Origin: an uncultured Verrucomicrobiae bacterium
GTDB lineage: Bacteria > Verrucomicrobiota > Verrucomicrobiia > Chthoniobacterales > Terrimicrobiaceae
DNA: 64,000 bases
Assembly (NCBI GenBank): GCA_963706955.1
Contig: CAVPOC010000010.1
Location: forward strand, 1-64,000
Reading direction: 5' to 3'
Shown: one piece after another, positions 17,785 through 42,648 of the stretch
Position numbering within the stretch: the stretch's first letter is position 1
How the letters are laid out: the number at the start of each line of letters is the position of its first letter
Program-made: the position numbers and the translations under genes
The notes under the pieces: generated by a model
What the model saw: the letters and a program-made list of their open reading frames with translations, nothing else
The model's database searches: none
Told to the model about the DNA's origin: nothing

Positions 17785-17791
17785 GGTGCCG

Positions 17792-21289: not shown

Positions 21290-21292
21290 TAA

Positions 21293-25620: not shown

Positions 25621-26259
25621 TCAGTTCTTTCCCACACTAGGAGATTCACGCAGGAGGTCGCCGATGTCCATGAGAAGCTTTTGCGGCAACTCCGGATCGC
25701 TGCCATCAAGAAAATTGCGCATCCAGCCTTCGCGGTCGACGAGCACAAAACGCGTTGAATGGATGGGCGTGCCGGAAGGTTCTCTGGCCAGCGCCTGGAG
25801 AAAGCCTTTCATGACGACGGTTTCGACTTGCTCCTTTGTCCCGGTCAGGAATTTCCAGCGGTCGGGCGAAGCTCCTGCCTGTTCGCCATATTGCCTGAGC
25901 ACTTCGGGCGTATCATACTCCGGGTCGACAGTTATGGAGACGAGTTCGACATCCGTGGCTTTGTTTCCAAGGGCTTGATTCACTTCCGCCATGCGGCTGG
26001 TCATCATCGGGCAAGGGCCTGCACACCGGGTAAAGATGAAGTTCGCGACCCAGATCTTTCCTTTAAAATCTCCCGTCGACACCGTCTTCCCATCCTGAGC
26101 CGTGAAGGTGAACTGCGGAGCCGGAGCGAGGCGCTCCAGGCGGGACGCGACCTGACGGGCTCGAATCTCTGCGCTAAACTGCAGGTACGCCCACGCGATC
26201 AGCGTCGTCAGGCAAAGAAAGGCGATCGCCCAGCCGAGACGCGGTATACGCGGTGGCAA
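25621..26259 (-). CDS. sco: SCO1/SenC copper chaperone (probable TTG start)
   Basis: FTRCAGPCP (CxxxC), SITVDPEYD, IHSTRFVLVD. Confidence 0.92.
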   Translation of the reverse strand: MPPRIPRLGWAIAFLCLTTLIAWAYLQFSAEIRARQVASRLERLAPAPQFTFTAQDGKTVSTGDFKGKIWVANFIFTRCAGPCPMMTSRMAEVNQALGNKATDVELVSITVDPEYDTPEVLRQYGEQAGASPDRWKFLTGTKEQVETVVMKGFLQALAREPSGTPIHSTRFVLVDREGWMRNFLDGSDPELPQKLLMDIGDLLRESPSVGKN

Positions 26260-26281
26260 TTGCCCCTGTTCCGTCTGCGAC

Positions 26282-26911
26282 TTAGATGACGTAGAGGATG
26301 GTGAAGAGGAAGATCCAGACGACATCGACAAAGTGCCAATAGAGACCGACATTATCGAGCGAGGTGGTGCGCCCAGGTCGGTAATAGCGAGTGAAAAGCT
26401 GGCGAAGAAAGCACCACGAGATAAGCATGACGCCGATAAATACGTGCGCGCCGTGAAAACCAGTCATCACAAAGAAGCAGGAACCGTAAATGCCATGCTT
26501 GTCGAACCAAAGCCCTTCATGATGGAGGTGGTTCCATTCCCACGCTTGCACCGATAAGAAGATCGAACCCGCCACGATGGTCGCGAAAAGCCAGACGAGA
26601 CCCGACTTTCCCTTCTTCTTGATCGCAGATTCCGCGCCATGGAACAGGAAGCTACTGCCGAGAAGAACGATCGTATTGCCGATCATGACCAGATTTAAAC
26701 TGGACAATGGCCATTGAACTCCGATATCCGGAGCGCCCGCTGGCGGCCATGGCTCGCCCCGCGCTAACCGAAGAACAATGTAGGCGCCAATCAAGCCTCC
26801 GAACAACATCGCCTCCGAAGCGAGAAAAGTGATCATGCCGAAGCGGCAGACCTCCGGTGGAGCTTTGGCATGTCCGGCATGCTCGCCGTGAGTCAAGACG
26901 GCGGTACTCAT
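26282..26911 (-). CDS. ctaE: Cytochrome c oxidase subunit III
   Basis: FLASEAMLF, TGFHGAHV, YWHFVDVVWIFLF. Confidence 0.95.
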   Translation of the reverse strand: MSTAVLTHGEHAGHAKAPPEVCRFGMITFLASEAMLFGGLIGAYIVLRLARGEPWPPAGAPDIGVQWPLSSLNLVMIGNTIVLLGSSFLFHGAESAIKKKGKSGLVWLFATIVAGSIFLSVQAWEWNHLHHEGLWFDKHGIYGSCFFVMTGFHGAHVFIGVMLISWCFLRQLFTRYYRPGRTTSLDNVGLYWHFVDVVWIFLFTILYVI

Positions 26912-27006
26912 AGTGGCAGGGATGATACCACGAAACTTGATGAATTCGAATTTCTCATGTTGCCTCGATAAAACGTTCCCATCTCACTCGATCCCCTCCA
27001 TCGTCC

Positions 27007-27120
27007 TCAAGGGGTAACGGCCGGGCCACGCAGAAGCATCAAAACAACGACTGTGGCACAAAGAGCAATGGCAAAAATCCAGAGCATCAGCATGAGACGT
27101 AGGTTGCGCTTGTTGCTCAT
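27007..27120 (-). CDS. 37-aa single-TM peptide
   Basis: MSNKRNLRLMLMLWIFAIALCATVVVLMLLRGPAVTP; its ATG immediately follows the ctaB stop. Below the ORF-track cutoff. Confidence 0.6.
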   Translation of the reverse strand: MSNKRNLRLMLMLWIFAIALCATVVVLMLLRGPAVTP

Positions 27121-28008
27121 TCATCGGCGCGCGGCTACCAGCAACCCGAGAAGCAAAGGCAGATAAAGAATCGACCCCAGAAACAATGTTTTCGCCGATC
27201 CGCGATCACGACGAAGGAGAAAACGCGCGGCCAGCCCGCAAAAAGCGATTCCGAGGGCCAACGCGCCGAAAAAGTACCAGGCGTGAACGTAGAAAAATAG
27301 CGCCGGTGTAAGGCTGGCAATGAGCATGCAGCCGGAATAAAGAAACGCTTGCCGCGCGGTCACGAAACCTTCCGGATCATAGTTCGAGAGCATGACAAAA
27401 CCTGCTCGCGCATAGTCTTCGCGATACATCCATGCGATCGCCAGAAAGTGCGGCATCTGCCAGAACCAGAGAATCGCAAAGAGCAAGCCGCCCTCGAGCG
27501 TATAGTGCCCAACAGCCGCCACCCAGCCAATGAGCGGTGGCAGCGCTCCCGGAATCGCGCCGACCAGGGTGTTCAGGGAACTGATCCGCTTCATCGGCGT
27601 GTAAACGAGCAGGTAGATCGCGATCGTGATCAACGCCAGGAAGGCGGCGCGAATATTCGTGAAGAGGAAGAGCACCGCCAAACCCGAAACGGAGAAAAGC
27701 AGGCCGAAAAGCAGCGCATCACTTGGATGCATCCGTTTCGCGGGCAGAGGACGCTGCTGTGTGCGCTTCATGCGCGCATCGAGGTCCCGTTCCCACCATT
27801 GGTTGAGCGCGGCTGCGCCACCGGCACACAGCGCCGTGCCAACCAACGTCGCAGCCAGGACCAGATAGTTCATTGGTCCCTGCCAGCCCATCAAGAATCC
27901 AACCAGCGTGGTCAGAAGGACAAGAAACGAGAGTCGCGCTTTGACAAGTTCGGCAAGGTCACTGACCAAGGCGTCCCAACGCGCGATGCTGAAGGTTGCT
28001 GTCTTCAT
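27121..28008 (-). CDS. ctaB: Heme O synthase (protoheme IX farnesyltransferase)
   Basis: LNQWWERDLDARMKRTQQRPLP, YTPMKR, WQMPHF. Confidence 0.96.
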   Translation of the reverse strand: MKTATFSIARWDALVSDLAELVKARLSFLVLLTTLVGFLMGWQGPMNYLVLAATLVGTALCAGGAAALNQWWERDLDARMKRTQQRPLPAKRMHPSDALLFGLLFSVSGLAVLFLFTNIRAAFLALITIAIYLLVYTPMKRISSLNTLVGAIPGALPPLIGWVAAVGHYTLEGGLLFAILWFWQMPHFLAIAWMYREDYARAGFVMLSNYDPEGFVTARQAFLYSGCMLIASLTPALFFYVHAWYFFGALALGIAFCGLAARFLLRRDRGSAKTLFLGSILYLPLLLGLLVAARR

Positions 28009-29036
28009 GCGACGCGCTCAATCAAACCTCGATTTAGGCCATCTGGCAAAACGAAATCCCGAATTCGTGCGCCGCAGAAAAGCCGAAAGGCCAATACGGT
28101 ACCGACCAACAGAGAAAGCGCTCCAAGCGCCATATGGGCGGTGGCTACGTCTGCCGCCTTGGCTGACCAAATTGTCCAAGCGCCCAGTCCGATCTGAAGC
28201 AGAATCATGGCGATCCAAAGCCACGACCACCCCCGGATGACCCGGGCGCTCCGTCGGGCTTTCCAGGCAAAGAAACCCACCGCCACGGCGATGAACAAAG
28301 CCAATAGGCGGTGCGCCATCTGGACCCAGATTTGCACGGCATTCGTCTTCATCTCGCTGTCCGCGACGCGTTGCGCATTGATTCGTTCGATGGCCTCGGT
28401 GCTGGTATCTGGAAGCCAATCTCCGTAGGCGAGCGGAAAATCGGGAATGGAGAGACCAATGTGTTCATGCCGCATGGTGGCGCCAATTCCCAATTGCACG
28501 AAGATGAGAGCTGTCACCGCCAAGGCCCACCACCGCAAGGTGGGATGAGGTTCGTAGTCCGCCCAACGCTTCTCCGCGAACGACCGGCTCGTCACAATCG
28601 CGAGAATCGAGATCGCCACGAAGAATGATTGCGCGAGCAACGCATGAAAGACTCCGATCTCATCCTTGATCAAAACGACGCGCAGACCACCAAGGACCCC
28701 TTGGAGACAAACGGCAATGAGGGCTGCCACAGCGAAAACCTTGACCCAGCGGCGCGGTTCGACCAGCCAAAGCGCAACCGACAAGACCACCGTCATCAGG
28801 CCAATCCCGGACGCGATCAGACGGTGTGTGTGCTCGTAAAAGATGCCGCCGACCCATCGCGAGATCGGAAAAAGGAACATGTTATACCCAAAACTATTCG
28901 GCCAATCCGGCACCGCCATTCCGGCGCCGTGTGAAGTTACGAGCCCACCGGTGCAGAGGAGCACAAAAGTGAGAACGGCCGTCAGGACCGCCCACCAGTG
29001 TACCGCGACGCGCGAAGCGGACCAGGCACTACTCAT
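28005..29036 (-). CDS. ctaA: Heme A synthase (COX15/CtaA)
   Basis: GMAVPDWP, YEHTHR, QMAHR, ATAH His motifs. Confidence 0.92.
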   Translation of the reverse strand: MSSAWSASRVAVHWWAVLTAVLTFVLLCTGGLVTSHGAGMAVPDWPNSFGYNMFLFPISRWVGGIFYEHTHRLIASGIGLMTVVLSVALWLVEPRRWVKVFAVAALIAVCLQGVLGGLRVVLIKDEIGVFHALLAQSFFVAISILAIVTSRSFAEKRWADYEPHPTLRWWALAVTALIFVQLGIGATMRHEHIGLSIPDFPLAYGDWLPDTSTEAIERINAQRVADSEMKTNAVQIWVQMAHRLLALFIAVAVGFFAWKARRSARVIRGWSWLWIAMILLQIGLGAWTIWSAKAADVATAHMALGALSLLVGTVLAFRLFCGARIRDFVLPDGLNRGLIERVA

Positions 29037-29040
29037 CGCG

Positions 29041-30807
29041 TCAATGCGCCTCAAGCTTCACGTGCTGGGGAGCTTTCTCCGTTTGCGGTAGATAATCCTT
29101 GCTCAAACCGGGCACGCTATACTCATAAGGTCCGTGATAGACGGTCGGTGTCACCGGGAAGTTTCCATGTCCGGGAGGCGACGGCACGGTCCATTCGAGG
29201 GTATTGGAATGCCAGGGATTTGCCGGCGCTTTACGCCCCCTCCGCAGACTGATAATGACATTCCAGACGAAGAGAAATGTCGTGAAGCCCAGACCGATCG
29301 CGCCGATCGTAGAAATTTGATTTAACGGCTGGAGTTGCTTCAGGTGCTCGTAGATGGGCGGATCTGAAATGCGGCGCATCATCCCGCCCAATCCCAGGTT
29401 GTGCATCGGGAAAAAGGCGACATTAAAGAAGATGAAGGTGAGGACAAAATGCACCTTGCCCAGCCTCTCGTCGAGCATTCGTCCAAACATCTTCGGAAAC
29501 CAGCAGTAGAGCGCACCGAAGAGCGCCATGATGCTTCCGCCAAAGAGCACATAATGAATATGTGCGACGATGAAGTAGGTGTGGTGAATGAAAAGGTCCA
29601 CGGGAGTTGAGGCCATGAAGATGCCGCTCAAACCGCCGATGACGAACATTGAAACGAAGGCCAGGGCAAAACACATCGCCGTCGTGAACTCAATCGACCC
29701 ACGCCAGACCGTCCCCAGCCAGTTAAAGGTTTTTATGGCCGAGGGCACCGCAATGAACATCGTCGACACTGAGAACGCGGCGCTCAGGGTCAGATTCATT
29801 CCACTGACAAACATGTGGTGACCCCAAACGATGAAGCCGAGGAACGCGATCGCGATGATGGCGTAGACCATTGCCTTATAGCCGAAGATCGGCTTCCTCG
29901 AGAAAATCGCGATGATGTCCGAAGTCAAACCCATGGCGGGCAAAATGAGAATGTAGACCTCCGGATGCCCAAAAAACCAAAAGAGGTGCTGCCAAAGGAG
30001 AGGCTGACCGCCGCCGGCGGGTCTGAAGAAGCTGGTGCCAGCGTTGAGGTCGCAAAACAGCATCGCCGCAGCCGCTGAGAGCACCGGCACGGCGAGGAGC
30101 AGCAGAATTGCCGTGATGAAGAGCGCCCATACCGTTAGTGGCATTCGAAACATGGTCATGCCCGGAGCACGCATATTCACCACCGTGGTGATGTAATTTG
30201 TTGCCCCGGCGATGGAGGAGAGACCGTTCACAAAAATAGCCACGCCCCAAAGACTCTGTCCCATTTGGGTGCCGTTGTAAGCGCCGACCGCGCTGAGCGG
30301 CGCGTAGGCAGTCCAGCCGGTCCCCGGGGCGCCTCCCGGGACGAAGAACGCGCCCAGCAGAAATACCCCCGAGGTAAAATAGAGCCAGTAGCTGATCTCG
30401 TTGAGCAGGGGAAAGGCCATGTCCCCTGCCCCGATTTGCAGTGGAATAAGATAATTGCCGAAGGTTCCGATCAGGAACGGCATGACGACAAAGAAAACCA
30501 TGACCGTCGCGTGCATGGTCACGAGCATGTTGTAGCCACCGGGGATGATGGCGCCGTCGGCCGCCACCGTTGCCGGCAGCAGATGGCCGATCACCGGCAC
30601 CGGTGTATTGGGCCAGGCGAGTTGGTAACGAACAAGCAGAGCAAGACCCCCGCCGAGAAACAAAAAGAGAAGGGCCGTCCAGAAATATTGAAGACCGATC
30701 ATCTTATGATCGTAGGTCCAGATATATTTTCGGAAGAACGATTCCTTCGGATGATGGGCATCCGTGATCGGCTCCTGAGGAGGTTGCTCGGCAATAATCG
30801 CGCTCAT
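29041..30807 (-). CDS. ctaD: Cytochrome c oxidase subunit I, A1-type
   Basis: All six His present (MHAT, GHPEVY, WGHHMF, AHIHY); D-channel DHKMIG. Confidence 0.98.
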   Translation of the reverse strand: MSAIIAEQPPQEPITDAHHPKESFFRKYIWTYDHKMIGLQYFWTALLFLFLGGGLALLVRYQLAWPNTPVPVIGHLLPATVAADGAIIPGGYNMLVTMHATVMVFFVVMPFLIGTFGNYLIPLQIGAGDMAFPLLNEISYWLYFTSGVFLLGAFFVPGGAPGTGWTAYAPLSAVGAYNGTQMGQSLWGVAIFVNGLSSIAGATNYITTVVNMRAPGMTMFRMPLTVWALFITAILLLLAVPVLSAAAAMLFCDLNAGTSFFRPAGGGQPLLWQHLFWFFGHPEVYILILPAMGLTSDIIAIFSRKPIFGYKAMVYAIIAIAFLGFIVWGHHMFVSGMNLTLSAAFSVSTMFIAVPSAIKTFNWLGTVWRGSIEFTTAMCFALAFVSMFVIGGLSGIFMASTPVDLFIHHTYFIVAHIHYVLFGGSIMALFGALYCWFPKMFGRMLDERLGKVHFVLTFIFFNVAFFPMHNLGLGGMMRRISDPPIYEHLKQLQPLNQISTIGAIGLGFTTFLFVWNVIISLRRGRKAPANPWHSNTLEWTVPSPPGHGNFPVTPTVYHGPYEYSVPGLSKDYLPQTEKAPQHVKLEAH

Positions 30808-30895
30808 TTCACTTTCGATTTGAAAGCCATTTTTACACCAATAACACAAGAACTGCTCGCGCGCGCGGGGGTTTCGGTGGATTTCATCTTACTCT

Positions 30896-31831
30896 TCATT
30901 TGGCGGCAACTTCAGGCGACGAAGTTCCTTCCTGCGCCTTGGCCGTGGCGGCAGCTTGGACTTTTCCGGCATACCACTTGTCGTACTCCTCCTGAGAAAC
31001 GACGCGAATGGGAGCCTTCATATTGTAGTGACCGGTCCCACAAAGCTGACTGCAGGCAAGCTCGAAGTTGCCCGGGCGTTCAACCTTAAACCAAACCCAC
31101 GAGATTGTGCGGCCTGGAAGGGCGTCCTGGTAGAGCCGAAAAAATGGCACGTAAAAGGAGTGAATGACGTCGCGCGAGTTGAGAACGATGTTGATCGGCT
31201 TGCCAAATGGTATGACCAGTTCGGTCGAAGTGAAGTCGTCCTTGCCGGCTGGGTCGGCCTGCGCCACTCCAAACTTGTTCTCGTTGGAAATCTCGTCGAT
31301 CGCGACGGCGCCGAGCTTTCCGTCTGCACCCGGGTAGCGAAAGTCCCAGCCGAATTGAAAGGCGGAAACATTGACTTGGAGAGCGTCGGGCGGCGGATCG
31401 CTGTGCAGTTCAGCCCAGAGGCGATTGCTATAGATGGCCAGACCAAGGAAGATCAGGACCGGAATCGACGTCCAGACTATTTCAAGCACATTGTTGCCGT
31501 GACAATAGTAGGCGCGATGACCCGGGCGCCGGCGGTATTTCACCAAATAGACGATGAAAACCGCCTGGACCGCAATGAAGACCACCAACGTGAGCCAAAA
31601 AATGAAGTGTAGGATCGCATCGATTTGCGCACCGCCCGTCGTGAAATTCGGCGGGGTCCAATAGAGATTATCCGTGCGCGGCTCGGCCAAAGCGCTCGAA
31701 AAGCTGACCAGAACGCCCAGCAAGAAGTAAACCAATCCGCGACAAGCCGATCGTGCCCGAGCAAACCTCAGCCTTTCCTGCGCGGCTTGCCGTCCCATTT
31801 CCTCGACGAGTAGTCGATCTTTGACCTTCAT
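30896..31831 (-). CDS. ctaC: Cytochrome c oxidase subunit II (CuA, no fused cytochrome c)
   Basis: LEIVWT, DVIHSF, CSQLCGTGHYNM; no CxxCH. Confidence 0.95.
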   Translation of the reverse strand: MKVKDRLLVEEMGRQAAQERLRFARARSACRGLVYFLLGVLVSFSSALAEPRTDNLYWTPPNFTTGGAQIDAILHFIFWLTLVVFIAVQAVFIVYLVKYRRRPGHRAYYCHGNNVLEIVWTSIPVLIFLGLAIYSNRLWAELHSDPPPDALQVNVSAFQFGWDFRYPGADGKLGAVAIDEISNENKFGVAQADPAGKDDFTSTELVIPFGKPINIVLNSRDVIHSFYVPFFRLYQDALPGRTISWVWFKVERPGNFELACSQLCGTGHYNMKAPIRVVSQEEYDKWYAGKVQAAATAKAQEGTSSPEVAAK

Positions 31832-31833: not shown

Positions 31834-32730
31834 TTAGGCTCCCGGAGTTGCCGTTGGCGCGGGCGCAGGCCCGGCGGGCGAAGGAGGCGCACCGGACGGC
31901 GTTGTCTCAGCCGGAGCGGGCGCCTGCGAATCAGCCGCTGGCGGACTGCTCCCGGGAGTTTGCTGGGCCGCCCCTGCAGGCGCGGACCCCGCATTAGCTG
32001 GTGCAGGGGCGGTATTTGCTGTGCCTGGAGCGGCTGCTGCGGCAGCTGCGGGGGCGGCCCCGGCATCCTGGACGAGGACTTTCTCAGTTGCCTGTAGTTC
32101 CTTTTGCGTCCAAGGTTCTGTTCGGTCCTTTGTCTGCTCGCGGATCTTGGCGACGAAGTCTTTGGTGATGGGCGGCGCTTTGTTGCCCCACTCGTTTCGC
32201 ACGTAAGTAAGGACAGCAGCGATTTGTTCATCCTTGAGCACTTTACCCCAGGGGGCCATCACATTGTTGAACTGCTCGCCTTTCACGGTCACCGCTCCGT
32301 GGAACCCGTGCAGGACGATTTTGACGATGTGATTATCGCCATGCCAGTCCTGCGCGAGCACCCATTCGCTCCCGGCGAGCGGAGGAAACTGACCGGCTAC
32401 GCCCAGCCCTGTCTGCTGGTGACAAACGGCGCAGTTCTGGGTGAAGAGACGCTTGCCGATAACCATCGGATCGGGCGCGGCGGCCGCGCCGCCGGTTCCG
32501 GCGCCGTCCCAGGCCACTCGAGCCGGATTGAAGACATTCACTCTGAAACCTCCGCTATTCCAAAACAGATACCCCGCACCCAGAAATGCAAGAGCGAGGA
32601 AGCTGATAATCAGCCAGGTTGGCAGCAACTCCGCTCCTTCACGGGACGCGTTGGATTCGCGTAGCAGGTCAACGTGCTGTTGCACGAGATCCTCGTCCTG
32701 AGCTCTTTCATTTGTCGGTTTGTCGATCAC
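31834..32730 (-). CDS. Membrane-anchored monoheme cytochrome c, CcoP-like N-terminus, Pro/Ala-rich tail
   Basis: LPTW plus TM helix, CAVCH, FPPLAGS, distal Met (NNVMAPW). Confidence 0.88.
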   Translation of the reverse strand: MIDKPTNERAQDEDLVQQHVDLLRESNASREGAELLPTWLIISFLALAFLGAGYLFWNSGGFRVNVFNPARVAWDGAGTGGAAAAPDPMVIGKRLFTQNCAVCHQQTGLGVAGQFPPLAGSEWVLAQDWHGDNHIVKIVLHGFHGAVTVKGEQFNNVMAPWGKVLKDEQIAAVLTYVRNEWGNKAPPITKDFVAKIREQTKDRTEPWTQKELQATEKVLVQDAGAAPAAAAAAAPGTANTAPAPANAGSAPAGAAQQTPGSSPPAADSQAPAPAETTPSGAPPSPAGPAPAPTATPGA

Positions 32731-32734: not shown

Positions 32735-33358
32735 TTACTGAAGGGGTTCAGCTTCGGGCAGAGTGTAGTCCCGCTTCAGAGAAAGAAGATATGCTACAAG
32801 CAGCCGCGCCTCTTCGCTAGGGACGATTTCGTAACCGGTCGCGGGCGCGTAGCGGCCAGTTAGCCCAGTGACGGCATTGGCACTCTGCTGGCCGACAATC
32901 TTTCGATTTTGATAGAGGTATCGATACGAAGGCATGTTCGACCCTGGCGTAATCATGGCAGGTTCGTAGAGGTGTTGGTGGAACCAATTTGCATCACTTG
33001 ACCTCAGCGCAACATTGGTCAAGTCGGGTCCAATGCGCAGATTCCCCAAGAATGCCGGATTCTCGCGCATGTAGTCGCGCGCCACGGTCGGGCGTGGGCC
33101 AAGCTTCTTTTCAACATCCGTCGAGAAAGCTCCGGAGCGTACCTGTTGAGTGTGGCAGGAAACGCAGCCGTTGGCCGCATAGACGCGCTGTCCGGCCGCA
33201 GCGAGGCCGGAGAGGGGTGGCGGATTGCTATCTCCCGTATTCTCATCAACTGCCGGCTGCATGCGGCCGAGGTGGAGATAAGAATAGCCGACAATACCAA
33301 ACCAGGCGGCGGTGAAGACCGCGAAAATTCCAAACACGAGCGTGGACAATTTGCTCAT
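32735..33358 (-). CDS. ccoO: cbb3-type subunit II-like monoheme cytochrome c
   Basis: GCVSCHTQQVR, RIGPDL, HLYEP, SNMPSY. Confidence 0.9.
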   Translation of the reverse strand: MSKLSTLVFGIFAVFTAAWFGIVGYSYLHLGRMQPAVDENTGDSNPPPLSGLAAAGQRVYAANGCVSCHTQQVRSGAFSTDVEKKLGPRPTVARDYMRENPAFLGNLRIGPDLTNVALRSSDANWFHQHLYEPAMITPGSNMPSYRYLYQNRKIVGQQSANAVTGLTGRYAPATGYEIVPSEEARLLVAYLLSLKRDYTLPEAEPLQ

Positions 33359-34770
33359 ACGCTCGCCGGCTCAGAAACAGTTAGACGCGAGCGCGAGGGT
33401 TCAGGGAGAGAACTGGCCTCAAGCAAATTGCGAATGAAAACGATGGCAAAGGCAATCGTCCCGGCGAAAACCGCTACCGCTCCCAGTGCGCTCATCACGC
33501 GAAAGGGAAACACCAGCGAAAGCGAACTCATGAAGTTCACATTCAGATCATTCAGCGCGAAGCCCTGAATCAGACCGCCCAACGTCAGGCAGACGAACAT
33601 TGTCCCGGCTCCGCAAACAAAGAGCCAAAAGTGCCAGGGAACGCACCGCGAGGAAAAATCCGCTCCGGTTAAGCGCGGCACTACATAATAGAAAGCCCCA
33701 AAAAGCGTCATGCTGAGAAATCCCAGCATGAGCATCACGTGCTCGCCGGTCGTATAGTCCGAGAAATGCGTCACTACCGCAAGAATGGGAGTGGCCGCTC
33801 CTTGGAGAACAACGCACACAAAACAAACCAGTCCCACGACGGTGAACAAGACATCAGGTGTATGGGGTTTGGTCCGTGCGCTCAAGGTGCCAAAGGTATT
33901 GATGCCAATAATCGTTGCCGGAATGAGCATCATGATGTCCGCCGCGACACTCGCACTCACCAGCCACGCGGGCACGGGGCCACCGATCAACTGCCTCACG
34001 CCCATCCAGCCGCCAAGGAAGGCAAGAAGCCAAAACGCCAGAACGCTCGAAGGATAGGCTCGCACGGGCCGTTGGGCAAAGTGCGGAACCAGATAATAAA
34101 CGGCACCGAGAACGATCGGCACCAGCCAGAGCCAGACGAGCGCACCAAAGAACCAACTTGCGATCGGACCTTGAGCCGAACCCTGCACCGGATACCAAAT
34201 GAGGAGCATGTTGGCGGTCGCGTACAACCACGGAAAACAGAGAAAAGCCGCGAGCAAATACCACTGCGACACGTAAAGTCCCTCGCGAGATCGGTCGCGA
34301 AGCAGGAATAGGCTCCACACGCCGATACAAACATAGGCAACGAGCAGAACGGCCGCCCCCGCGCCGGGGAATTCCAAACCCCTCACCGCATTCCCATCAC
34401 CGGCGAGAATCCCGCAAATGCCAAGAAGCACACCGAAATTCCAAAATGCGCCGGCGGTCAGCAGAAGCCGTTCGGAACCGAGAGCCGTCCGTCCGAGCTG
34501 AGCCAGCAACCAAAAACCAACGCCCATTCCGGCCTGCGACGCCCACCCATACCACAACGAGTTCTCCGCCGCCGCCTGAATTCTTCCGAAGGTCAACCAG
34601 CCAGATCCGTCTAGTAACGACGGCATCACGAGCTTCCACGCTGCCAGGCAACTCAGGAATGATCCAATGACCAACCAAAATATTGCCGAGCCCAAAAACA
34701 TGAGCACGGGGAAACGCAAGGCTTCGCGATGCTCCTGGTCTTGTATTTTAGTGACGATTGGTGGGTTCAT
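33355..34770 (-). CDS. cbb3 subunit I (CcoN) homolog lacking all heme/CuB ligands
   Basis: CcoN framework WLTFGR, LYVSQWY, YYLVP...RPV, HFSDY, YYVVPRLTG, HFWL; canonical His positions substituted. Confidence 0.85.
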   Translation of the reverse strand: MNPPIVTKIQDQEHREALRFPVLMFLGSAIFWLVIGSFLSCLAAWKLVMPSLLDGSGWLTFGRIQAAAENSLWYGWASQAGMGVGFWLLAQLGRTALGSERLLLTAGAFWNFGVLLGICGILAGDGNAVRGLEFPGAGAAVLLVAYVCIGVWSLFLLRDRSREGLYVSQWYLLAAFLCFPWLYATANMLLIWYPVQGSAQGPIASWFFGALVWLWLVPIVLGAVYYLVPHFAQRPVRAYPSSVLAFWLLAFLGGWMGVRQLIGGPVPAWLVSASVAADIMMLIPATIIGINTFGTLSARTKPHTPDVLFTVVGLVCFVCVVLQGAATPILAVVTHFSDYTTGEHVMLMLGFLSMTLFGAFYYVVPRLTGADFSSRCVPWHFWLFVCGAGTMFVCLTLGGLIQGFALNDLNVNFMSSLSLVFPFRVMSALGAVAVFAGTIAFAIVFIRNLLEASSLPEPSRSRLTVSEPASV

Positions 34771-34813
34771 GTTCCCAAAAGGGTCGCGCCGCACCGGCGG
34801 CAGCCCTGAGTTG

Positions 34814-35376
34814 TCATAGATTGGCCGTGGCTTGCGTTGCTGGATTGCTAGCCGGTGTGGGCGCTGCGGCGGGCGACGCGATGCTGCCGGCGAGGCGGCG
34901 GGCGCGGGCGACGCGGCCGGTGACGCCGCAGGCGAGGCCGGAGGTGCCGCGACTGGTGAAGCTGCGGGCGCTGCTGTCGGGGCAGCCGCCGGTGAGCCTA
35001 CAGGTGAAGCTGCGGGCGCTGCCGTCGGGCCAGCCGCCGGTGAGGCTGCGGGCGATGGAGCTGGAGTGGCGATGGGGCCTGCCGCCGTTGGCTTTTTGGA
35101 GTTCAGTTCCACGATGGCGAGTTCCATGGCCCGTTCGATGGGGATCTGCACCGTGCCCTTCGCTTTATCGACCCAGGCGTAGTTTTGAAGCTTCTGGGCG
35201 TTTTCGGCTTCAAGCTCCTGATGAGCCTTGGCCCGTTCAGCGGCGCGCGCGGCATCTTCATCGGGTGCAGGCGCGAATCCCAGCAGGAGCCTCACCGCTA
35301 TCACGAAAAGTAAGAGCAGGAGAAATCCGCCGGCGAGGACGAGCCACAATGGTCTGGAGTGGGCGGCGGAGCTCAT
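34814..35376 (-). CDS. ActG-like small membrane subunit with SPAA-repeat tail (in frame with the ccoN-like gene as assembled)
   Basis: TM helix plus YAWVDKAKGTVQIPIERAMEL; TGATG coupling to actF; probable indel near 34878. Confidence 0.7.
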
Positions 35377-36572
35377 CAGTTCTTCAGGGCGATCGACTTT
35401 CCGAGACGCGGATCGCGCGCCGGAAAGAGCGAAGAGTCTCCGAGTCGCTTCAGAAAAACAGCGGCCAGCGTGCAACCGATGGCAACCAGGCTGAAAAAGT
35501 CGAGTGGATTTGGCCGAACTCCCGCGACGTGCAAGACGGGAAGCACAACGATATAGATGTCAAGCATGTGCATCAGCAGGATCCAAACCGCCATGCCGCA
35601 GAGAAAGGTCGGTGTCTTCTTGGCACGTTGGAAGAGCAGCAAGAGAAATGGGACGAAGAAATGCCCGACCACCATGAATTGGCTCAGATACCACCAGCTC
35701 GCGGTATTGCGCCGCAGGAAATAGACAGTCTCTTCGGGGATGTTCGAATACCAGATCAGCATATACTGGCTGAAACCGATGTAGGCCCAGAAGATCGTAA
35801 AGGAGAGCATCAGCTTACCCATGATGTGGTAATGCTCCAGGTTCACCACCTGCTGCAGATAGCCCGCGCCACGCAGCGCGGTCACGATCAAGACCAGCAC
35901 GCACATTGAGCTGAGCGCGGTTCCGGCGAAAATGTAAACGCCCCACATCGTGGAAAACCAGTGGTAGTCCAGCCCCATTAACCAGTCGACGGCAGCAAAA
36001 GTGAGACAGACCGCGAAAGGAATGGCACTGGCAAAGGTCACCCGACGATTGAACACCGTGTAAACCGCGGCCCCACTGCTATCCTGGGCAATCGAGAACG
36101 TTCGCAGGAGCGTCGAGGAGGCCACAAAGAAGATGAAGTAGAGACTCGCCCTGATATAAAAGAAGGGCACATTAAGATAGGCGGCCTTCTCGACCAAGAG
36201 AGGATCATGGGCGTTCTCAGGCTGCATCCATTCCCAGAGCGTCGGACCGACAGCAAGCAGTGGAATAAAGAGCAGCGCCATGATCGCAAGAAGGCTACCC
36301 ATATTTTCCAACTGCCGGCGGACGACCACGCTCCATTCGGCATCCACCGCATGATGGACCAGCGTCCAGAAGAGTCCTCCCATGCAGATGGTCAGGAAAA
36401 ACGTGTAGGCAAAGAGATAGGAGAAAGCGAACTGCCTGGGATCGATGAATGCCCCAACCAGCACCACCACAAACGCCAGCACCGCCATGCCAATCAATCC
36501 AAGAAAACGGCCCCCGACATGCTTGTAGTCGAAAAACTCCGGCTGCGGATGTTGGCTGAACGATTGACTCAT
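35376..36572 (-). CDS. actF: Alternative complex III membrane subunit F
   Basis: DWLMGLDYHWFSTMWG, FWAYIGFSQYMLIWYSNIPEE. Confidence 0.92.
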   Translation of the reverse strand: MSQSFSQHPQPEFFDYKHVGGRFLGLIGMAVLAFVVVLVGAFIDPRQFAFSYLFAYTFFLTICMGGLFWTLVHHAVDAEWSVVVRRQLENMGSLLAIMALLFIPLLAVGPTLWEWMQPENAHDPLLVEKAAYLNVPFFYIRASLYFIFFVASSTLLRTFSIAQDSSGAAVYTVFNRRVTFASAIPFAVCLTFAAVDWLMGLDYHWFSTMWGVYIFAGTALSSMCVLVLIVTALRGAGYLQQVVNLEHYHIMGKLMLSFTIFWAYIGFSQYMLIWYSNIPEETVYFLRRNTASWWYLSQFMVVGHFFVPFLLLLFQRAKKTPTFLCGMAVWILLMHMLDIYIVVLPVLHVAGVRPNPLDFFSLVAIGCTLAAVFLKRLGDSSLFPARDPRLGKSIALKN

Positions 36573-37262
36573 CTATTGGGACTCCAGTTTGACGCGTTCC
36601 GCCGGAGGCACGTCGCCCAATACGGCTCCGCCTTGCGACTTCTGCAGCGCTCGCAGGTAGGCGATGATCGCCCAGCGGTCGATCACCTGAATGCGGTCAC
36701 CATAGCCGAGCATAGTGTTCTTGCCGTGCGTGATCGTGTTGAAAATCTCCCCGTCAGCCATGGTGCGAATGCGATCCTGAAGCAGACTTTGCACCGTATT
36801 GAGTCCAAATTTTTGCGCGATGCCGTTTCCCGCTCCGGTGGCGCCGTGACAGACTGCGCAATAGATGCCAAATCGCTGTTGGCCCCGCCCCATCACCGCA
36901 GGGGAGATCTGAAAGGGAACGCCCGTGCCCCAATTCTCGCCCATCTTTCCGGTGTCGATGTAGGTGGGCGAACTCGAGAAGATGATCTGCTGGTATGGCC
37001 CTGTGGCCTGGCCTACCGAACCGTCCACCAGCTTGTGCATCGGCATCGCATAGCCCAGCGGCACCGTGCCCTCGACCGGCGGGCGCGCGGCGCGTCCATC
37101 CGCAAAGAACTCACTCGGTGTTTGCGGCTTCACTTTGGGTTGGCGATCCATGTCGGGAAAGATCTCGATCGGCGCCTGGCCACCCTTTTGCCCACGTAGC
37201 CCAGCCATTGCCAGAACGACAAGCCCCAGAAAGGCAAATGCGATGAAGAAGTATTTCAGCAT
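36573..37262 (-). CDS. actE: Alternative complex III monoheme cytochrome c
   Basis: FPDMDRQPK, PVEGTV, CAVCHG, DRWAIIAYLRALQ. Confidence 0.92.
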   Translation of the reverse strand: MLKYFFIAFAFLGLVVLAMAGLRGQKGGQAPIEIFPDMDRQPKVKPQTPSEFFADGRAARPPVEGTVPLGYAMPMHKLVDGSVGQATGPYQQIIFSSSPTYIDTGKMGENWGTGVPFQISPAVMGRGQQRFGIYCAVCHGATGAGNGIAQKFGLNTVQSLLQDRIRTMADGEIFNTITHGKNTMLGYGDRIQVIDRWAIIAYLRALQKSQGGAVLGDVPPAERVKLESQ

Positions 37263-37332
37263 TCTTGTCTGCCTGGCTTCAAATTATCCAGCATGTGCAT
37301 GGCGAGGTCTGCTTGCATTTCAGTTCAGGCCA

Positions 37333-37899
37333 CTAGTCCTCGTGAACCCTGGTGATATGGCGTGCGCCGAGAGATTCGAGGAACTCGCGAACTTCGCTTT
37401 CGCCGAATTTGGGATCTCTCTTTTCAACCACGCAAAAGAACTTGTCCTCGCTGACTCGCTTAAACCTCTCCCAGTTAAACATGGGGTGATTCAGACGCGG
37501 TAGGCCGTTCATCATCAGCATTCCGAAGGTCGCGGTGAAGGCCGAGATGAGCACCGTGAATTCGAACATGATCGGAAAAAAAGCCGGCACGGTGAAAAGA
37601 TTTGTCGGCTTGCCCATGACGATCAGCGGATAAATGAACGAGCTCGGCACGAACTGGATCGCCACCGCCGAAATAAAGCCGATCAGACCACCCACGAAGA
37701 CGATCTTGCCAAGCAGCGACCGCTTCAGCCCCATCGCTTGATCCATGCCGTGGATCGGAAAGGGCGAAAAGACATCGAAGCGCGTGAAGCCGGCATCGCG
37801 CATCTGCTCGGCAGCGTGGAATAACTCGCCCGCGGTATCAAACTCCGCGGCGATACCGTAGAAGGGTGCTTCGGGATTTCCGGCGACGTGGGCAGACAT
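37333..37899 (-). CDS. actD: Alternative complex III subunit D (DUF3341)
   Basis: FSPFPIHGMD, PIMFEFTVL, NGLPRLNHP. Confidence 0.93.
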   Translation of the reverse strand: MSAHVAGNPEAPFYGIAAEFDTAGELFHAAEQMRDAGFTRFDVFSPFPIHGMDQAMGLKRSLLGKIVFVGGLIGFISAVAIQFVPSSFIYPLIVMGKPTNLFTVPAFFPIMFEFTVLISAFTATFGMLMMNGLPRLNHPMFNWERFKRVSEDKFFCVVEKRDPKFGESEVREFLESLGARHITRVHED

Positions 37900-39327
37900 T
37901 TAGTGCTTCCCTGCAGGGTGCGGGTGGTAATGGGGATCAGCCTCCGGCAGCACCGCTTTGACCTCGAACATGCAGATCATCGGCAGGAAGCGGATGAAGA
38001 GCAGAAAGAGAGTGAAGAAAAGACCGAGCGATCCGACGAACATCGAAATATCCACCCACGTGGGATGGAACATGCCCCATGAAGAGGGCAGGAAGTCGCG
38101 GGCCAGCGTAGTCGCGATGATCACGAAGCGCTCATACCACATGCCCGCATTGGGAAATTGAACGATGATCCAGACCCAGACCAGATGCGTGCGAAAATAT
38201 TTGAACCAGAAAAGCTGCGGAGCAACGACATTGCAGAACATCATGCAGAAATAGGCCCACCAATACGGCCCCGTAGCGCGGTAGAGGAACGCGGCCTGTT
38301 CGTAAGGATTGCCGCTGTACCAAGCCATGAAGAGCTCCATCAGGTAGGCGTAGCCCACGATCGATCCTGTGAAGACGATCACCTTGCACATCTTGTCCAC
38401 GTGGGAAATAGTCACGAGATCGTGGAGCGGCTTATAGAGCGCGCAAGCCGGGATCATGATGGTCAGAACCATCGCAAAGCCGCCAAAAATGGCTCCGGCC
38501 ACGAAATACGGCGGGAAAATCGTCGTGTGCCAGCCGGGAATCACGGAGGTGGCGAAGTCGAATGACACCACCGAGTGCACTGAAAGGACCAGCGGAGTCG
38601 AGAGACCTGCGAGAATAAGGTAGGCCATCTCGTAGTGGCGCCAGTGACGATTGCTCCCGCGCCAGCCCAGGGCAAGAATGCCGTAGGCAAACTTGCGGAT
38701 CTTCGTCTTGGCCCGATCGCGCAATGTGGCGATATCCGGAATCAGGCCCGTATACCAAAACAACACCGAAACAGTGAAGTAGGTGCCGACCGCGAAGACG
38801 TCCCAAAGCAACGGACTCCGGAAATTTGGCCAGATACCGTTGGAGTTCGGCACCGGCGCCATGAACCAGGCCATCCACACCCGGCCAATGTGAAAGCCCG
38901 GGTAAATCGCCGCGCAAATGACCGCGAATAGCGTCATCGCCTCCGCGGCGCGGTTAATTGAGGTGCGCCACTTTTGACGCGTCAAAAAGAGGATCGCGGA
39001 AATCAGTGTTCCGGCGTGACCAATACCGATCCAGAACACGAAATTGGTGATATCCCACGCCCAGCCAACGGGAACATTGTTGCCCCAGACGCCAACTCCC
39101 GTCGAAACCAGATAGATAATGCAGCCAAAAAGAAGCAGAGCCAGTGGCGTGGTGACCGCCATGGCAGCCCACCACCAGAGCGGCGTCCGCGATTCGACGA
39201 TGGAACTTACATAGGCGGCAATCCACCCCATGGTGCGCCGATTGAGCACGAGGGGTGGGCGCTCGACGGAGCGCTCATCGAATTGCGCTTCCGCTGGACG
39301 CGGTTCGGTTGTCGAAGTGTCAGCCAT
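37900..39327 (-). CDS. actC: Alternative complex III quinol-binding subunit C (NrfD family)
   Basis: [49 protein letters not shown]. Confidence 0.96.
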
Positions 39328-39486
39328 GGATTATCCCGCCAACGAAGGCTCCTCGCTTTGCCCGCACGCGTGGCGTGCATGTTCGCAGATCCCCAGCCAG
39401 CAAGTGGACGTGTTCAATGGTGCGTTGGCTCCTCCGTTTCGTGACGATCGCCTGTCCCGTGTCCGTTGGCGTCGTGTTCATTGACA

Positions 39487-42400
39487 TCATGATCCTCGGC
39501 GCCGTGATTCGGCGCCGTGACCATGGGGTTCACCGTTGGCCATCCCGACCCTGCTCGCGTCTGGCATTTTTGAATTCGGGTTCTTGATTCGCGCGAGGTA
39601 ACTCACCCGGGGTAGGGTATTCAAGTACTTCAGCATCACATAGCCGCGATCGCTCTGGCGCGTTCTCGACACCGGGCTTTGCAGGTTTCGGATATTACCG
39701 AAAACAAGCGAGTCGCTCGGGCAGGCTTGCTGGCAAGCCGTCTTGAACTCGCGAATCGGCACGTCATTCTTGTTGCGGGGCCCTGCCTCCACCAAACGGG
39801 CAATCTTGGCCTCTTCAATGCGCTGAATGCAAAAGGTGCACTTCTCCATCACGCCGCGCATCCGGACGGTGACGTTCGGGTTCTTAGCCATTTGCAGGCT
39901 ATCTGCCATGCCCTTCCGAGCTACCGGGCCAGCATACAACTGATCAAGCGGTCTTTGATTGTAATCGAAGTAGTTAAAGCGGCGCACCTTCCAAGGGCAA
40001 TTATTCGAACAATACCGCGTCCCGATACAACGATTGTATGCCATAAGGTTCAAGCCATCCTCGCTATGAACGGTGGCATTGACCGGACACACGGTCTCGC
40101 AAGGAGCGTTCTCGCAGTGTTGACACAGCATCGCCTGCGCGAGCATCTCGGGATCTTCCGGTTCGCCGGCGAAATAGCGGTCAATTCGAATCCAAGCCAT
40201 ATCGCGGTTTCGACGAACTTGCTCCTTGCCGACGACCGGAACGTTATTCTCTGCTTGGCAGGCAACGACGCAAGCGTTGCAGCCAAAGCAGGTATTCAAA
40301 TCGACGGTCATTCCCCATTGCTCGTTCGCCGTCAGCTGCGGGTGCGAATAGAGCGAGATGTTGGGAGGGATGTGGCTATCCATCCCCATAGTTTGAGCAA
40401 ACTTGGGATCATGCTGGTAGCGCTCGAGAGTTCCCTCTCGGAACAAGTCTCGGCCCTCCATGCTGCGGTGCTCCTGTGTTTGCGCCAGAGGATACCGCTC
40501 TTTGGTGACCTTCACCTGCACTCCCGTCAAGAAACGCTCGGCATCGGTTGACCGGAGTGGATACGCATTGAATCCAACTCCTTCGAAGAGTGCCGAGACA
40601 CCGCTGCGGCCATATCCCAGCGCCAGGGAGATCGAATCCTCGGCGTGGCCGGGCGCGACATAAGCGGCCGCCGTGACAGAAGTTCCACCGGGGGACTTGA
40701 TCTCGATGAGGTCGGCCACCACGTCGAAATCGATATTGTTGCCCAGTTGCTCGGCCACCTGGTAGATCGGACCGAAATTGTTGGCGCGGATGCCGAGCTT
40801 CTCGGCGGTCGCGGGACTAACCAGCGCGACGTTGTCCCACGTCACCTTGGTCTCAAAGTCGGGAGTTTCCTGAAGCCAAGAATTGTTTGCGTATCTGCCG
40901 TCGTCCACGCTGTTGCTCTGCAGGAAGACTAGCTCGATGCCTTCGGCGAGTGGCTTAATGTCCTTTATTGGCGCTGCTGCCTGACCTCCCGAAAATGAAA
41001 GGGGCGCCGCTGGCCATTCACTACCGGGAGCAAAGCCAACTCGAAGGACCGAATTCCATTTTTCCGGATCGGCATTAAACGTCTGCGCAAAAGTTTCCTG
41101 AATGAGAGCGGGCCCTTGAGGTTTCGGTCGCCCCGCGAGCTGCGCGAGAATCTCCAATTCACTGACGCCATTCCACAGCGGCAAGATCATCGGCTGTACT
41201 ACCGAGTAGGAGCCGTCGTAAGCGCGCACGTCGCTCCACATCTCCAGATAATGCGCAGCAGGGATGTGCCAGCGACAAAGCTTGGATGTTTCGTCCTCGA
41301 ACAACCCGAGGCGCACCGACTGCGAGACCTTCCCGAGAAGGTCAGAGAAATTCAAATCGGAAGGTGCGTTGTAGGCGGGATTGCCACCAAGCACAAAGAG
41401 CGTCTTTATCGACCCGGCTTCGATCCCAGCTTTCAGGTCGCCGATAGTGCCGGTCGGCTTCTCATCGGTCGCCGCGCCAAGGATGGTGGCGCCGATATTG
41501 CCAAGCGCCTGGTTGATCGCATGGCCAAGAATCTGCACCCAAACGGGCTGCTGCTCTCCGACAAAGACGATACTCCGTCCTCGGCTTGCCAGGAGATCGT
41601 TGGCACACCCAGAGAGCCAGGCCTCATCGAAGGTCGCGTCCATCTTTGGACAGGCCTGAAGAATCGACGCCAGCTCCGAGTCGCCGGCCGAAGCAGACAG
41701 GTGGCTGCCAAGCTGCCGAGTGAATTCGCCAATCAGAGAGGCTTTGCAGCGATAACGATGGTCCGCTAGGCCGCCGGTGCCGGTGTAGTGATTCTCAACG
41801 ACGTAGAGGCGATTCATCGGGGCGCCCTTTTGGTCGGGGCTGCGGCGCTGGAAGAAACCGTGGGCGAAGCCGACGCCTTTGTCGCTCTGGTTGAGAAACT
41901 CGCTGTCCAGGGCGACAATCACATCGGCCTGCTGAAAATTCGGCAGCAGACGGACACCCTGCCCGAAAGAGGCCGAAACCGCCCCCTGTGCCAAAGTATT
42001 TCCGAGCGGCTCATACTCGCACCAAATCATTCCCGGAAATTTTCCCTCGAGTTCCGCGCGGAGCCTGTCTCGCGTGGGAGAGTTATTGCGCTCCACCAGA
42101 AATGCCACACCCTCGGCAGACGCACTCAGACCCTTAAGCAAATTGTCCAATGCTTCAGGGCGAGCCTCGACACCGTTTTCCTTTATCGTCCTGGAACGAT
42201 TCGGATCGTAGAGATCCAATATGCTCGCTTGAGCGAAAGCGTCTGTCCCGCCATTGCTGAAAGGATGAAGGGGATTGCCTTCGATTTTCGTCGGTCGGCC
42301 GTCGACGGTGCTGACAATCAGAGGCATCGCGCCCTGCCGCAACGGCATCGCTGTTGCGTAAAAAAGGAACTTTCCGGGAATGGTCCACTCGACCCCCTTA

Positions 42401-42648
42401 TTGAACGGAACTACAAACGCGTCAGGACGGCGGCAACCGGCGAGTCCAATGCCTGCGAGTGACATCGAAGCGCCCAGGAGCTTCATGAAGTCACGCTTGG
42501 TAAGTCCGCTATCTTCATAGACATCGGCCCCACGGGGAAATTCTCGCCGGAGAACCGTTTCGAAACCGGGGGAGTTCTCGAGTTCGGCAAGGCTGCGCCA
42601 GATCGTCGGCCTTTCAGGCCTTGGCGGATGATGGAAAACGCGCTTCAT
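39487..42648 (-). CDS. actB: Alternative complex III subunit B (molybdopterin-oxidoreductase-like plus Fe-S domain); true end probably 39414
   Basis: WRSLAE, Tat-like TKRDFMK, GRPTKIEGNP, CFGCNACVVAC, CQHCENAPCETVCP, CIGTRYCSNNCP, CTFC. Confidence 0.95.
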   Translation of the reverse strand: MKRVFHHPPRPERPTIWRSLAELENSPGFETVLRREFPRGADVYEDSGLTKRDFMKLLGASMSLAGIGLAGCRRPDAFVVPFNKGVEWTIPGKFLFYATAMPLRQGAMPLIVSTVDGRPTKIEGNPLHPFSNGGTDAFAQASILDLYDPNRSRTIKENGVEARPEALDNLLKGLSASAEGVAFLVERNNSPTRDRLRAELEGKFPGMIWCEYEPLGNTLAQGAVSASFGQGVRLLPNFQQADVIVALDSEFLNQSDKGVGFAHGFFQRRSPDQKGAPMNRLYVVENHYTGTGGLADHRYRCKASLIGEFTRQLGSHLSASAGDSELASILQACPKMDATFDEAWLSGCANDLLASRGRSIVFVGEQQPVWVQILGHAINQALGNIGATILGAATDEKPTGTIGDLKAGIEAGSIKTLFVLGGNPAYNAPSDLNFSDLLGKVSQSVRLGLFEDETSKLCRWHIPAAHYLEMWSDVRAYDGSYSVVQPMILPLWNGVSELEILAQLAGRPKPQGPALIQETFAQTFNADPEKWNSVLRVGFAPGSEWPAAPLSFSGGQAAAPIKDIKPLAEGIELVFLQSNSVDDGRYANNSWLQETPDFETKVTWDNVALVSPATAEKLGIRANNFGPIYQVAEQLGNNIDFDVVADLIEIKSPGGTSVTAAAYVAPGHAEDSISLALGYGRSGVSALFEGVGFNAYPLRSTDAERFLTGVQVKVTKERYPLAQTQEHRSMEGRDLFREGTLERYQHDPKFAQTMGMDSHIPPNISLYSHPQLTANEQWGMTVDLNTCFGCNACVVACQAENNVPVVGKEQVRRNRDMAWIRIDRYFAGEPEDPEMLAQAMLCQHCENAPCETVCPVNATVHSEDGLNLMAYNRCIGTRYCSNNCPWKVRRFNYFDYNQRPLDQLYAGPVARKGMADSLQMAKNPNVTVRMRGVMEKCTFCIQRIEEAKIARLVEAGPRNKNDVPIREFKTACQQACPSDSLVFGNIRNLQSPVSRTRQSDRGYVMLKYLNTLPRVSYLARIKNPNSKMPDASRVGMANGEPHGHGAESRRRGS

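Follow-up and report, generated by a model that had tools for sequence, protein, structure and literature searches.

Recurrent loss of all cofactor ligands in a CcoN homologue encoded with alternative complex III in Verrucomicrobia, and its possible role as a membrane scaffold

A 64,000-nucleotide stretch of DNA from an uncultured Verrucomicrobiae bacterium of the family Terrimicrobiaceae (GenBank assembly GCA_963706955.1, contig CAVPOC010000010.1, positions 1 to 64,000; hereafter the window) encodes a homologue of CcoN, subunit I of the cbb3-type cytochrome oxidases, in which the six histidines that hold the cofactors and the cross-link tyrosine have all been replaced. Its gene lies in an operon with the genes for alternative complex III (ACIII) and an A-type (aa3) oxidase. 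We use the asterisked form, ccoN* or CcoN*, for such ligand-less homologues and CcoN' for the CcoN of the ACIII-linked clade as a whole. By means of comparative genomics we find that the loss of ligands in ACIII-linked CcoN is real, conserved and recurrent, and apparently undescribed in print. We consider it probable that CcoN* serves as a scaffold in the membrane, free of cofactors itself, for a wire of two haems leading from ACIII to the A-type oxidase.

The ccoN* gene and its missing ligands

The ccoN* gene (33355-34770, minus strand) codes for 471 residues with no internal stop and overlaps the following ccoO gene by ATGA, as described in an earlier note that was made from the letters of this DNA alone. 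To locate the ligand positions we read them on an alignment with the CcoN of Pseudomonas stutzeri (3mk7_A) and with 30 canonical CcoN proteins from the same phylum. This revealed the absence of both ligands of low-spin haem b (H60 to A68 and H347 to V345), of the haem b3 ligand (H345 to E343), of the three CuB ligands (H207 to G209, H257 to R259 and H258 to Q260) and of the cross-link tyrosine in helix VII (Y251 to G253). The earlier note had called these losses by eye and had allowed that a proper alignment might restore the histidines; both alignments instead confirm the loss in full. We take the seven positions to be the established haem, CuB and cross-link sites of catalysis. With all of them replaced, and in line with the earlier note, the protein is not expected to act as a conventional O2 or NO reductase. 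The equivalent of E122 of canonical CcoN is also replaced, and those of H337 and D340 are still present (H335 and D338). One further histidine, H344, stands between two of the lost haem-ligand sites; we ruled it out as a shifted ligand, since it is conserved in just 12 of 57 close homologues (H335 in 43 of the 57). The losses are not a sequencing artefact, because homologues with 53-96% identity show the same ones; DNA contigs from three other runs also cover the ligand stretches with few differences, and there is no frameshift in the gene among the differences listed.

CcoN* scores 123.8 bits against TIGR00780 and thus misses the equivalog threshold (cut-off 583), as does its His-intact parent clade (about 200-260 bits), and it matches the Pfam COX1 family with 157 bits. 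A search among the sequences of solved structures recovered cbb3 subunit I chains exclusively (5 sequences). The AlphaFold2 model built from an alignment has a predicted local distance difference test score (pLDDT) of 89 (a single-sequence model, pLDDT 47, was set aside), and the top seven Foldseek matches to it are CcoN chains (TM-score 0.86-0.89). CcoN* is of CcoN descent and has, as modelled, the CcoN fold, which agrees with the claim of the earlier note that the multi-TM framework is kept.

In the present assembly an apparent open reading frame of 706 residues fuses the preceding gene, actG, in frame to ccoN*. As three DNA runs that cover the site carry an extra base at 34878/34879, which is also seen in one RNA run, and as ActG ends before ccoN* in close relatives, the long frame is very probably explained by a one-base deletion in this assembly. 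We accordingly rejected an ActG-CcoN* fusion as an assembly slip, and the 471-residue frame of the earlier note is the right one. Locus L244 (genome G347) likewise shows an open ActG-CcoN* frame, of 777 residues, which may represent either a genuine fusion or a second error of assembly.

Descent and repeated loss within Verrucomicrobia

A protein search with CcoN* recovered 536 relatives. Among the 120 of these that were listed, the named proteins are labelled cbb3 subunit I, bearing out the prediction that pipelines would mis-annotate the protein as a cbb3 oxidase; those with 53-96% identity lack the ligands and those with 44-50% identity mostly keep them. Across 301 genomes of the phylum TIGR00780 found a match in 97 and its cut-off was passed in 60. 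When 60 weaker matches were examined, 52 proved to lie in act-ccoN'-ccoO-cytc loci, of which two are truncated by the end of a contig, and the other 8 belonged to other groups or to the A-family. Within the order of the window a CcoN* match is present in 138 of 151 genomes, nearly all of them stop-free; the sample examined from this order comprised the 30 top-ranking places and a further 60 chosen by hand from lower ranks. Going by record names, the family occurs in Chthoniobacterales, Terrimicrobiaceae, Opitutaceae and Puniceicoccaceae.

We term a locus "intact" if its CcoN' keeps six ligand histidines and "dead" if it keeps two or fewer. The 206 distinct loci collected comprise 111 with six histidines, 4 with five and 91 with two or fewer, proportions that are not population estimates because the order sample was partly hand-picked. 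Of the 150 top-ranking cluster representatives at 50% identity, 142 were scorable by length and 136 have two or fewer histidines. It had been considered in the earlier note that close orthologues might retain the histidines, with neutral evolution on this branch: the retention is indeed seen, in the 111 intact loci, but these represent the parent clade, and the dead branch is under purifying selection.

In a CcoN tree (83 rows, quick search) CcoN* is nested among the His-intact CcoN' proteins, with 4 changes of state, 3 of them forced by starred branches. Because the long dead branches of such a tree may attract each other, we built a separate ACIII tree from ActD, ActE and ActF, in which the ligand columns play no part (153 rows dereplicated to 108; quick search). 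This tree requires 14 changes between intact and dead, of which at least 10 are forced, and an approximately unbiased (AU) test on 41 hand-picked rows of the 108 rejected a single dead clade (p 3e-27). We read the changes as losses because six histidines, the tyrosine and ccoS can hardly have been regained; their number could be smaller if ccoN had in some cases moved by itself from one lineage to another. Taken together, the phylogenies indicate that CcoN* descends from the His-intact ACIII-linked CcoN clade and that the ligands were lost in at least 10 separate branches of Verrucomicrobia.

In a set of 196 dead sequences, made non-redundant at 70%, the seven ligand sites are most often occupied by A, N, G, R, R, Q and Q; none of these residues exceeds 100 of the 196, and no substitute ligand is conserved. 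In the same set 63 positions, mostly Gly, Pro, Trp and Arg, are conserved in at least 75%.

Some loci show other states of CcoN'. Family f3 and its kin (L056, L057, L174, L245, L247, L249) keep the low-spin ligands H60 and H347 and have lost the binuclear site; judging by these residues, f3-type CcoN' is a possible single-haem intermediate. A remnant of ccoS is retained in L247 and L180. Partly eroded CcoN' proteins with four or five histidines, some without the tyrosine (P0068, P0072, P0084, P0091, P0093, L127, L197, L198, L224), are encoded in loci that still contain ccoS. Three genomes have two copies (L253/L254 in G337, L260/L261 in G437 and L224/L225 in G349), with the dead or eroded copy inside the act operon and a His-intact ccoS-ccoN' elsewhere, apart from the act genes. 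Another two divergent clades of C-family-like proteins with intact histidines (L046, L054 and L090; L036-L039) are not ACIII-linked, and the partner in the first of them is a dihaem CcoO-like protein.

Loss of ccoS and retention of the partner cytochromes

The small open reading frame found upstream of intact copies is CcoS, as all five tested match FixS, three of them above the cut-off. CcoS helps to form the haem b-CuB centre (PMC12648545). Using a profile made from 23 of the upstream frames (circular for those 23; 6 loci were not assessable), ccoS was recovered at 109 of 109 assessable six-His loci and 3 of 3 five-His loci, versus 2 of 88 dead loci. Searches of whole genomes with Pfam FixS gave a comparable picture, with 17 of 26 intact versus 1 of 27 dead. 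Comparison of 10 independent pairs showed the loss of ccoS to accompany that of the ligands in all 10 (p about 0.002 by a sign test).

The partner cytochromes, in turn, persist: ccoO is present at 90 of the 91 dead loci, with CxxCH in 90 of 90, and a second, CcoP-like cytochrome is found at 88, with CxxCH in 86. Residues Y67, T106, M107 and T109 of CcoO, conserved at 92-100% in intact loci, drop to 40% or less in dead loci, and the haem ligands are retained. These four residues presumably face towards haem b. The N-terminal positions R24, E25 and P29 of the CcoP-like protein also relax in dead loci.

Selection and expression

The ratio of nonsynonymous to synonymous substitution (dN/dS), calculated by the method of Nei and Gojobori (NG86) for ccoN* against 15 relatives, gave 14 values of 0.071-0.259 and one undefined, with about 0.10 at a dS of 0.55 and with many pairs near saturation. 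CoxA and ActC gave 0.022-0.043 in the same pairs. The median is 0.144 over 60 dead pairs versus 0.138 over 408 intact pairs, the pairs being non-independent. A pseudogene would be expected to have a broken frame and to evolve neutrally, whereas the frame of ccoN* is intact and its dN/dS is 0.07-0.26; the view that the gene is not simply decaying is thereby supported.

Four pmoA-bearing genomes of the class have a dead copy in the same operon (in one methanotroph locus, L293, about 7 kb at 11222-18141 is inserted between actF and actG). For Methylacidiphilum fumariolicum SolV one CcoN, MFUM_v2_0384, is listed in the supplement to PMC10205796. Read by eye, it has one of the six histidines left, the equivalent of H258, and no ccoS lies between its gene and the preceding one. 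The mean transcript levels in two reactors, in transcripts per million (TPM), are 36 and 47 for ccoN*, 46 and 56 for actC, 49 and 67 for ccoO, and 58 and 96 for the cytochrome gene. The SolV ccoN* is therefore transcribed at the level of ACIII. RNA runs of three studies yielded contigs that fall within ccoN* and differ from it at 0-8 positions; as contigs cannot show transcription, we draw no support from them.

The operon and its genome

The minus-strand run runs in the order actA-actF, the ActG-position protein, ccoN*, ccoO, the CcoP-like cytochrome, coxB, coxA, ctaA, ctaB, coxC and sco, which agrees with the placement of ccoN* between ACIII and aa3 genes in the earlier note. Its features, with the evidence for each, are:

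35376..43310, minus strand: actA, actB, actC, actD, actE and actF, alternative complex III (domain and profile matches)
42645-43310, minus strand: actA, with five haem motifs (haem-motif count)
34814..35376, minus strand: small membrane protein after actF, called ActG by position, without a Pfam family (open reading frame, relatives)
34771..34813, no strand: 43-bp gap from the actG stop to ccoN*, the place of ccoS in His-intact relatives (no ccoS in the gap or the assembly)
33355..34770, minus strand: ccoN*, ligand-less CcoN homologue of 471 residues, six histidines and cross-link tyrosine all replaced (open reading frame, alignments, model, Foldseek)
32735..33358, minus strand: ccoO-like monohaem cytochrome c (FixO, 75.6 bits), CxxCH and Met142 kept, ATGA overlap with ccoN*
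31834..32730, minus strand: CcoP-like membrane-anchored monohaem cytochrome c with an Ala/Pro tail (weak FixP_N match, below cut-off)
30896..31831, minus strand: coxB, CuA-bearing subunit II without a haem c motif (domain and motif)
29041..30849, minus strand: coxA, A-family subunit I with intact His/Tyr motifs (domain and motif)
25621..29054, minus strand: ctaA, ctaB, coxC and sco, for haem a/o synthesis, subunit III and a copper chaperone (domain matches)

A FixP_N match, likewise below the cut-off, is seen in 11 of 43 homologues of the CcoP-like protein (E up to 0.1). A membrane protein of 88 residues (25343-25609), recurring in related loci, is encoded after sco, and genes for a branched-chain/urea-type ABC transporter lie downstream of the operon (19392-24308). 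Searches of the genome itself (assembly 92.5% complete) found no other CcoN, second ccoO, ccoS, ccoG or cytochrome bd. A second respiratory operon, on contig C3 (G000:C3:736413-743565; L002, L280), is of the caa3 type with a haem-c subunit II; it also codes for subunit III, a cytochrome c, a probable Rieske protein and cytochrome b, and its subunit I is in three frameshifted pieces, whose breaks may be assembly errors.

A possible scaffold between ACIII and the A-type oxidase

In systems already described an extra haem c joins ACIII to the oxidase, namely a sixth ActA haem in Flavobacterium johnsoniae and the caa3 haem in Rhodothermus marinus (PMC8552683); ACIII followed by caa3 also appears in a table of PMC13274419. 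In the loci studied here ActA has five haem motifs in 81 of 81 cases, and the linked subunit II has a haem c motif in 0 of 65 (duplicate loci included). Two ACIII loci from other classes (L082, L297) are without the module of CcoN*, CcoO and CcoP-like cytochrome (N*OP) and have a haem-c subunit II. The act genes are upstream at 88 of the 91 dead loci and, where cox genes are linked, they come directly after the gene for the CcoP-like protein. All dead-carrying genomes in two sets (27 of 27 and 55 of 55, with four in common) encode an A-family oxidase, as do 22 of 26 intact-carrying ones.

The ancestral complex was, we infer, a working ACIII-fed cbb3-type oxidase. Where an A-type oxidase was able to draw its electrons from the CcoO and CcoP haems, the catalytic site would have become dispensable, with the anchor still needed. 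CcoN*, keeping the predicted fold of cbb3 subunit I, would hold CcoO and the CcoP-like cytochrome in the membrane, and their haems would pass electrons from ACIII to the CuA of the A-type oxidase. The N*OP module would in this manner supply the extra haem c that is provided in other ACIII systems by the sixth ActA haem or by subunit II of caa3.

We modelled the complex of CcoN* (residues 10-456), CcoO and the CcoP-like protein (residues 10-218, the scored partner) from alignments that mixed His-intact and dead rows. It scored 0.70, versus 0.00 for the best of 3 controls, and replacing CcoN* abolished the score; the runs agreed in at least 63% of contacts with a partner pLDDT of at least 77. 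The score mark is reached by 116 of 157 solved complexes and by 2 of 215 mismatches, counts that hold just roughly here. In the model the CcoP-like helix is predicted to pack on CcoN* residues 234-290. The suggestion of the earlier note that CcoN* is a repurposed cofactor-less scaffold thus gains support from selection, from the retained haem motifs of the partners and, tentatively, from the complex prediction. A broader proposition, which we advance tentatively and hold to be rather less likely, is that at least 10 parallel pseudo-enzyme origins, each shedding ccoS and keeping CcoO and CcoP, gave rise to a putative ACIII-(CcoN*OP)-aa3 assembly, the hybrid supercomplex suggested in the earlier note, in which the emptied core is an obligatory scaffold for the wire, constituting a third architecture.

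Several observations weigh against a wire to the A-type oxidase. Met142 of CcoO is kept in just 87% of dead loci. Since 22 of the 26 intact genomes also have an A-family oxidase, its presence cannot explain which genomes lose the ligands. The aa3 genes are unlinked in many loci and lineages, and aa3 subunit I of SolV, at 264 and 317 TPM, is transcribed about 7-fold above ccoN*; for both reasons the module tracks ACIII more than it does aa3. The genome of the window has, besides, a bc-type complex with the caa3-type operon on contig C3. In the pmoA-bearing methanotroph genome G039 (99% complete, 70 contigs), which encodes ACIII together with a subunit II lacking haem c, no N*OP was found: at locus L305 (C1:231000-250900) coxC directly follows actG, the operon is without ccoN*, ccoO, the cytochrome gene and coxA, and a search of the whole genome yielded no ccoO. 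The module can thus apparently be lost. Altogether nine ACIII loci in eight genomes gave no CcoN* match, five of them at a contig edge (one inside ccoN) and two split after actD; the remaining two are one with caa3 and that of G039. A search at class level for further ACIII loci that lack N*OP had 2 genomes to draw on. As for the complex prediction, its pass may show likeness rather than binding, because CcoNOP structures have been solved and the alignments included intact members, and conservation of the predicted interface in dead proteins does not significantly exceed that of the rest (0.52 versus 0.47, p 0.16).

The main rival explanation is that CcoN*OP is a scaffold for some other purpose, either a structural part that has become entrenched in ACIII or an exit for electrons towards different acceptors in the periplasm, to which we accord a lesser chance, of perhaps one in several. 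It would account for a module that is tied much more closely to act than to cox, which the locus often lacks, for the SolV transcript levels, which fit ACIII and not aa3, and for the missing module in G039; furthermore, in F. johnsoniae aa3 can do without ActE, which may deliver electrons to different acceptors (PMC8552683). Set against this are the presence of an A-family oxidase in every dead-carrying genome tested, the linked subunit II that never has a haem c of its own and the position of linked cox genes directly after the CcoP-like gene. A channel or sensor had been offered in the earlier note as an alternative to the scaffold; in this reading the cavity left by the cofactors would conduct protons or other ions, or take part in sensing. 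The full helical bundle is retained and R63, E133, N291, H380 and Q402 persist at 0.80-0.92 of dead sequences, but the equivalents of T215, S240, Y251 and Y317, which we take to be residues of the proton path in the C-family, are kept at 0.97 in intact proteins and at just 0.03-0.32 in dead ones. As it is the polar path residues that relax, the suggestion goes unsupported; nor has the cavity acquired any fixed polar residue anew, and at least ten lineages filled the ligand sites differently, making such a function improbable.

Equally improbable is a novel site, for catalysis or redox chemistry, whose ligands depart from the canonical ones, for instance a single low-spin haem b or a shifted His344. 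In its favour, family f3, from the same order, mostly keeps H60 and H347, two related loci have a ccoS remnant, and the protein of the window offers E343, H344 and H335; this protein has nevertheless lost both low-spin ligands, H344 and H335 are conserved among close homologues only to the extent noted above, ccoS is gone, and NO-reducing families have conserved, modelled active sites (PMC11214002), which the CcoN* family is without. Least probable of all, and largely refuted, is a decaying relic or pseudogene kept by inertia or translational coupling. Such decay would fit the rate of ccoN*, about three times that of CoxA and ActC in the same pairs (0.07-0.11 versus 0.02-0.04), its long branches, one split copy (G357) and the missing gene in G039. 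It is at odds with a dN/dS far below 1 and almost equal in dead and intact pairs, with the matches throughout the order, nearly all of them free of stops, with the 63 conserved positions and with transcription in SolV.

Implications and relation to known systems

The linkage of ACIII and C-type oxidase genes in Opitutaceae and verrucomicrobial methanotrophs has been published (PMC8498564, crediting Refojo 2010), and the ACIII-linked copies, including that of methanotrophs, have been treated as working cbb3 oxidases (PMC8498564, PMC6688271, PMC10205796, PMC11102522); for Limisphaera cbb3 is listed without detail (PMC13608581). In the literature searched, which comprised listings and the starts of abstracts and had subscription papers such as the haem-copper classifier papers outside its scope, we found no report of a ligand-less CcoN. 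The available text of PMC4013037 contains nothing on one, and the term "Verrucomicrob" is absent from the main text of PMC11214002. The loss of ligands, in the earlier note the best candidate for an undescribed system, thus appears to be one; the recurrence of the loss, the accompanying loss of ccoS and the prior publication of the ACIII-cbb3 gene linkage had escaped that note.

Among 56 dead-carrying genomes, drawn from Chthoniobacterales and including four of methanotrophs, 49 yielded no other CcoN-type gene, so that the "high-affinity cbb3 oxidase" of these 49 is the CcoN* protein. Papers on Methylacidiphilum list a cbb3 oxidase and tie it to high oxygen affinity (PMC6688271, PMC8498564, PMC10205796). 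Many genome-based claims of cbb3 oxidases in Verrucomicrobia are likely to be wrong; the effect is smaller in Opitutales-type genomes, because most of these also have canonical ccoNO. If the ACIII-(CcoN*OP)-aa3 assembly is real, the "cbb3 oxidase" of Methylacidiphilum and many Chthoniobacterales would be nonexistent. For bioenergetics, where the transfer of electrons from ACIII to the oxidase varies between organisms, CcoN*OP would be a third solution that is testable in cultured strains. For evolution, these proteins represent a widespread non-catalytic family of the haem-copper superfamily, whose intact, partly eroded and dead members offer a natural series from enzyme to putative scaffold.

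With the canonical CcoN-CcoO-CcoP complexes (P. stutzeri 3MK7, Pseudomonas aeruginosa 8SMR, TIGR00780) the CcoN* locus shares the fold, with a TM-score of 0.88-0.89 and a root-mean-square deviation of about 2 Å for the model, the N-O-P order, the FixO subunit and the predicted contact of the P helix with N; it differs in the 24% identity of CcoN*, a genome without ccoS or ccoG, and a P-like subunit that is monohaem. The eNOR, sNOR, gNOR, nNOR, NOD and N2O red families (PMC11214002) are, like CcoN*, derived from oxygen reductases and without the cross-link tyrosine, but these tyrosine-less families have conserved, modelled active sites, whereas CcoN* has no conserved set of ligands. The ACIII-aa3 of F. 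johnsoniae and the ACIII-caa3 of R. marinus likewise have ACIII genes beside an A-type oxidase (PMC8552683); here, in contrast, ActA has five haems and subunit II none, and the further c-type haems of the operon are those of ActE, CcoO and the CcoP-like protein. The nearest system is the direct parent, the His-intact CcoN' clade of Verrucomicrobiae (act-ccoS-ccoN'-ccoO-cytc), which has 44-49% identity to CcoN* and the same place in the operon with the same partners, and which, as a putative oxidase, differs in keeping all the ligands, together with ccoS in 109 of 109 assessable loci.

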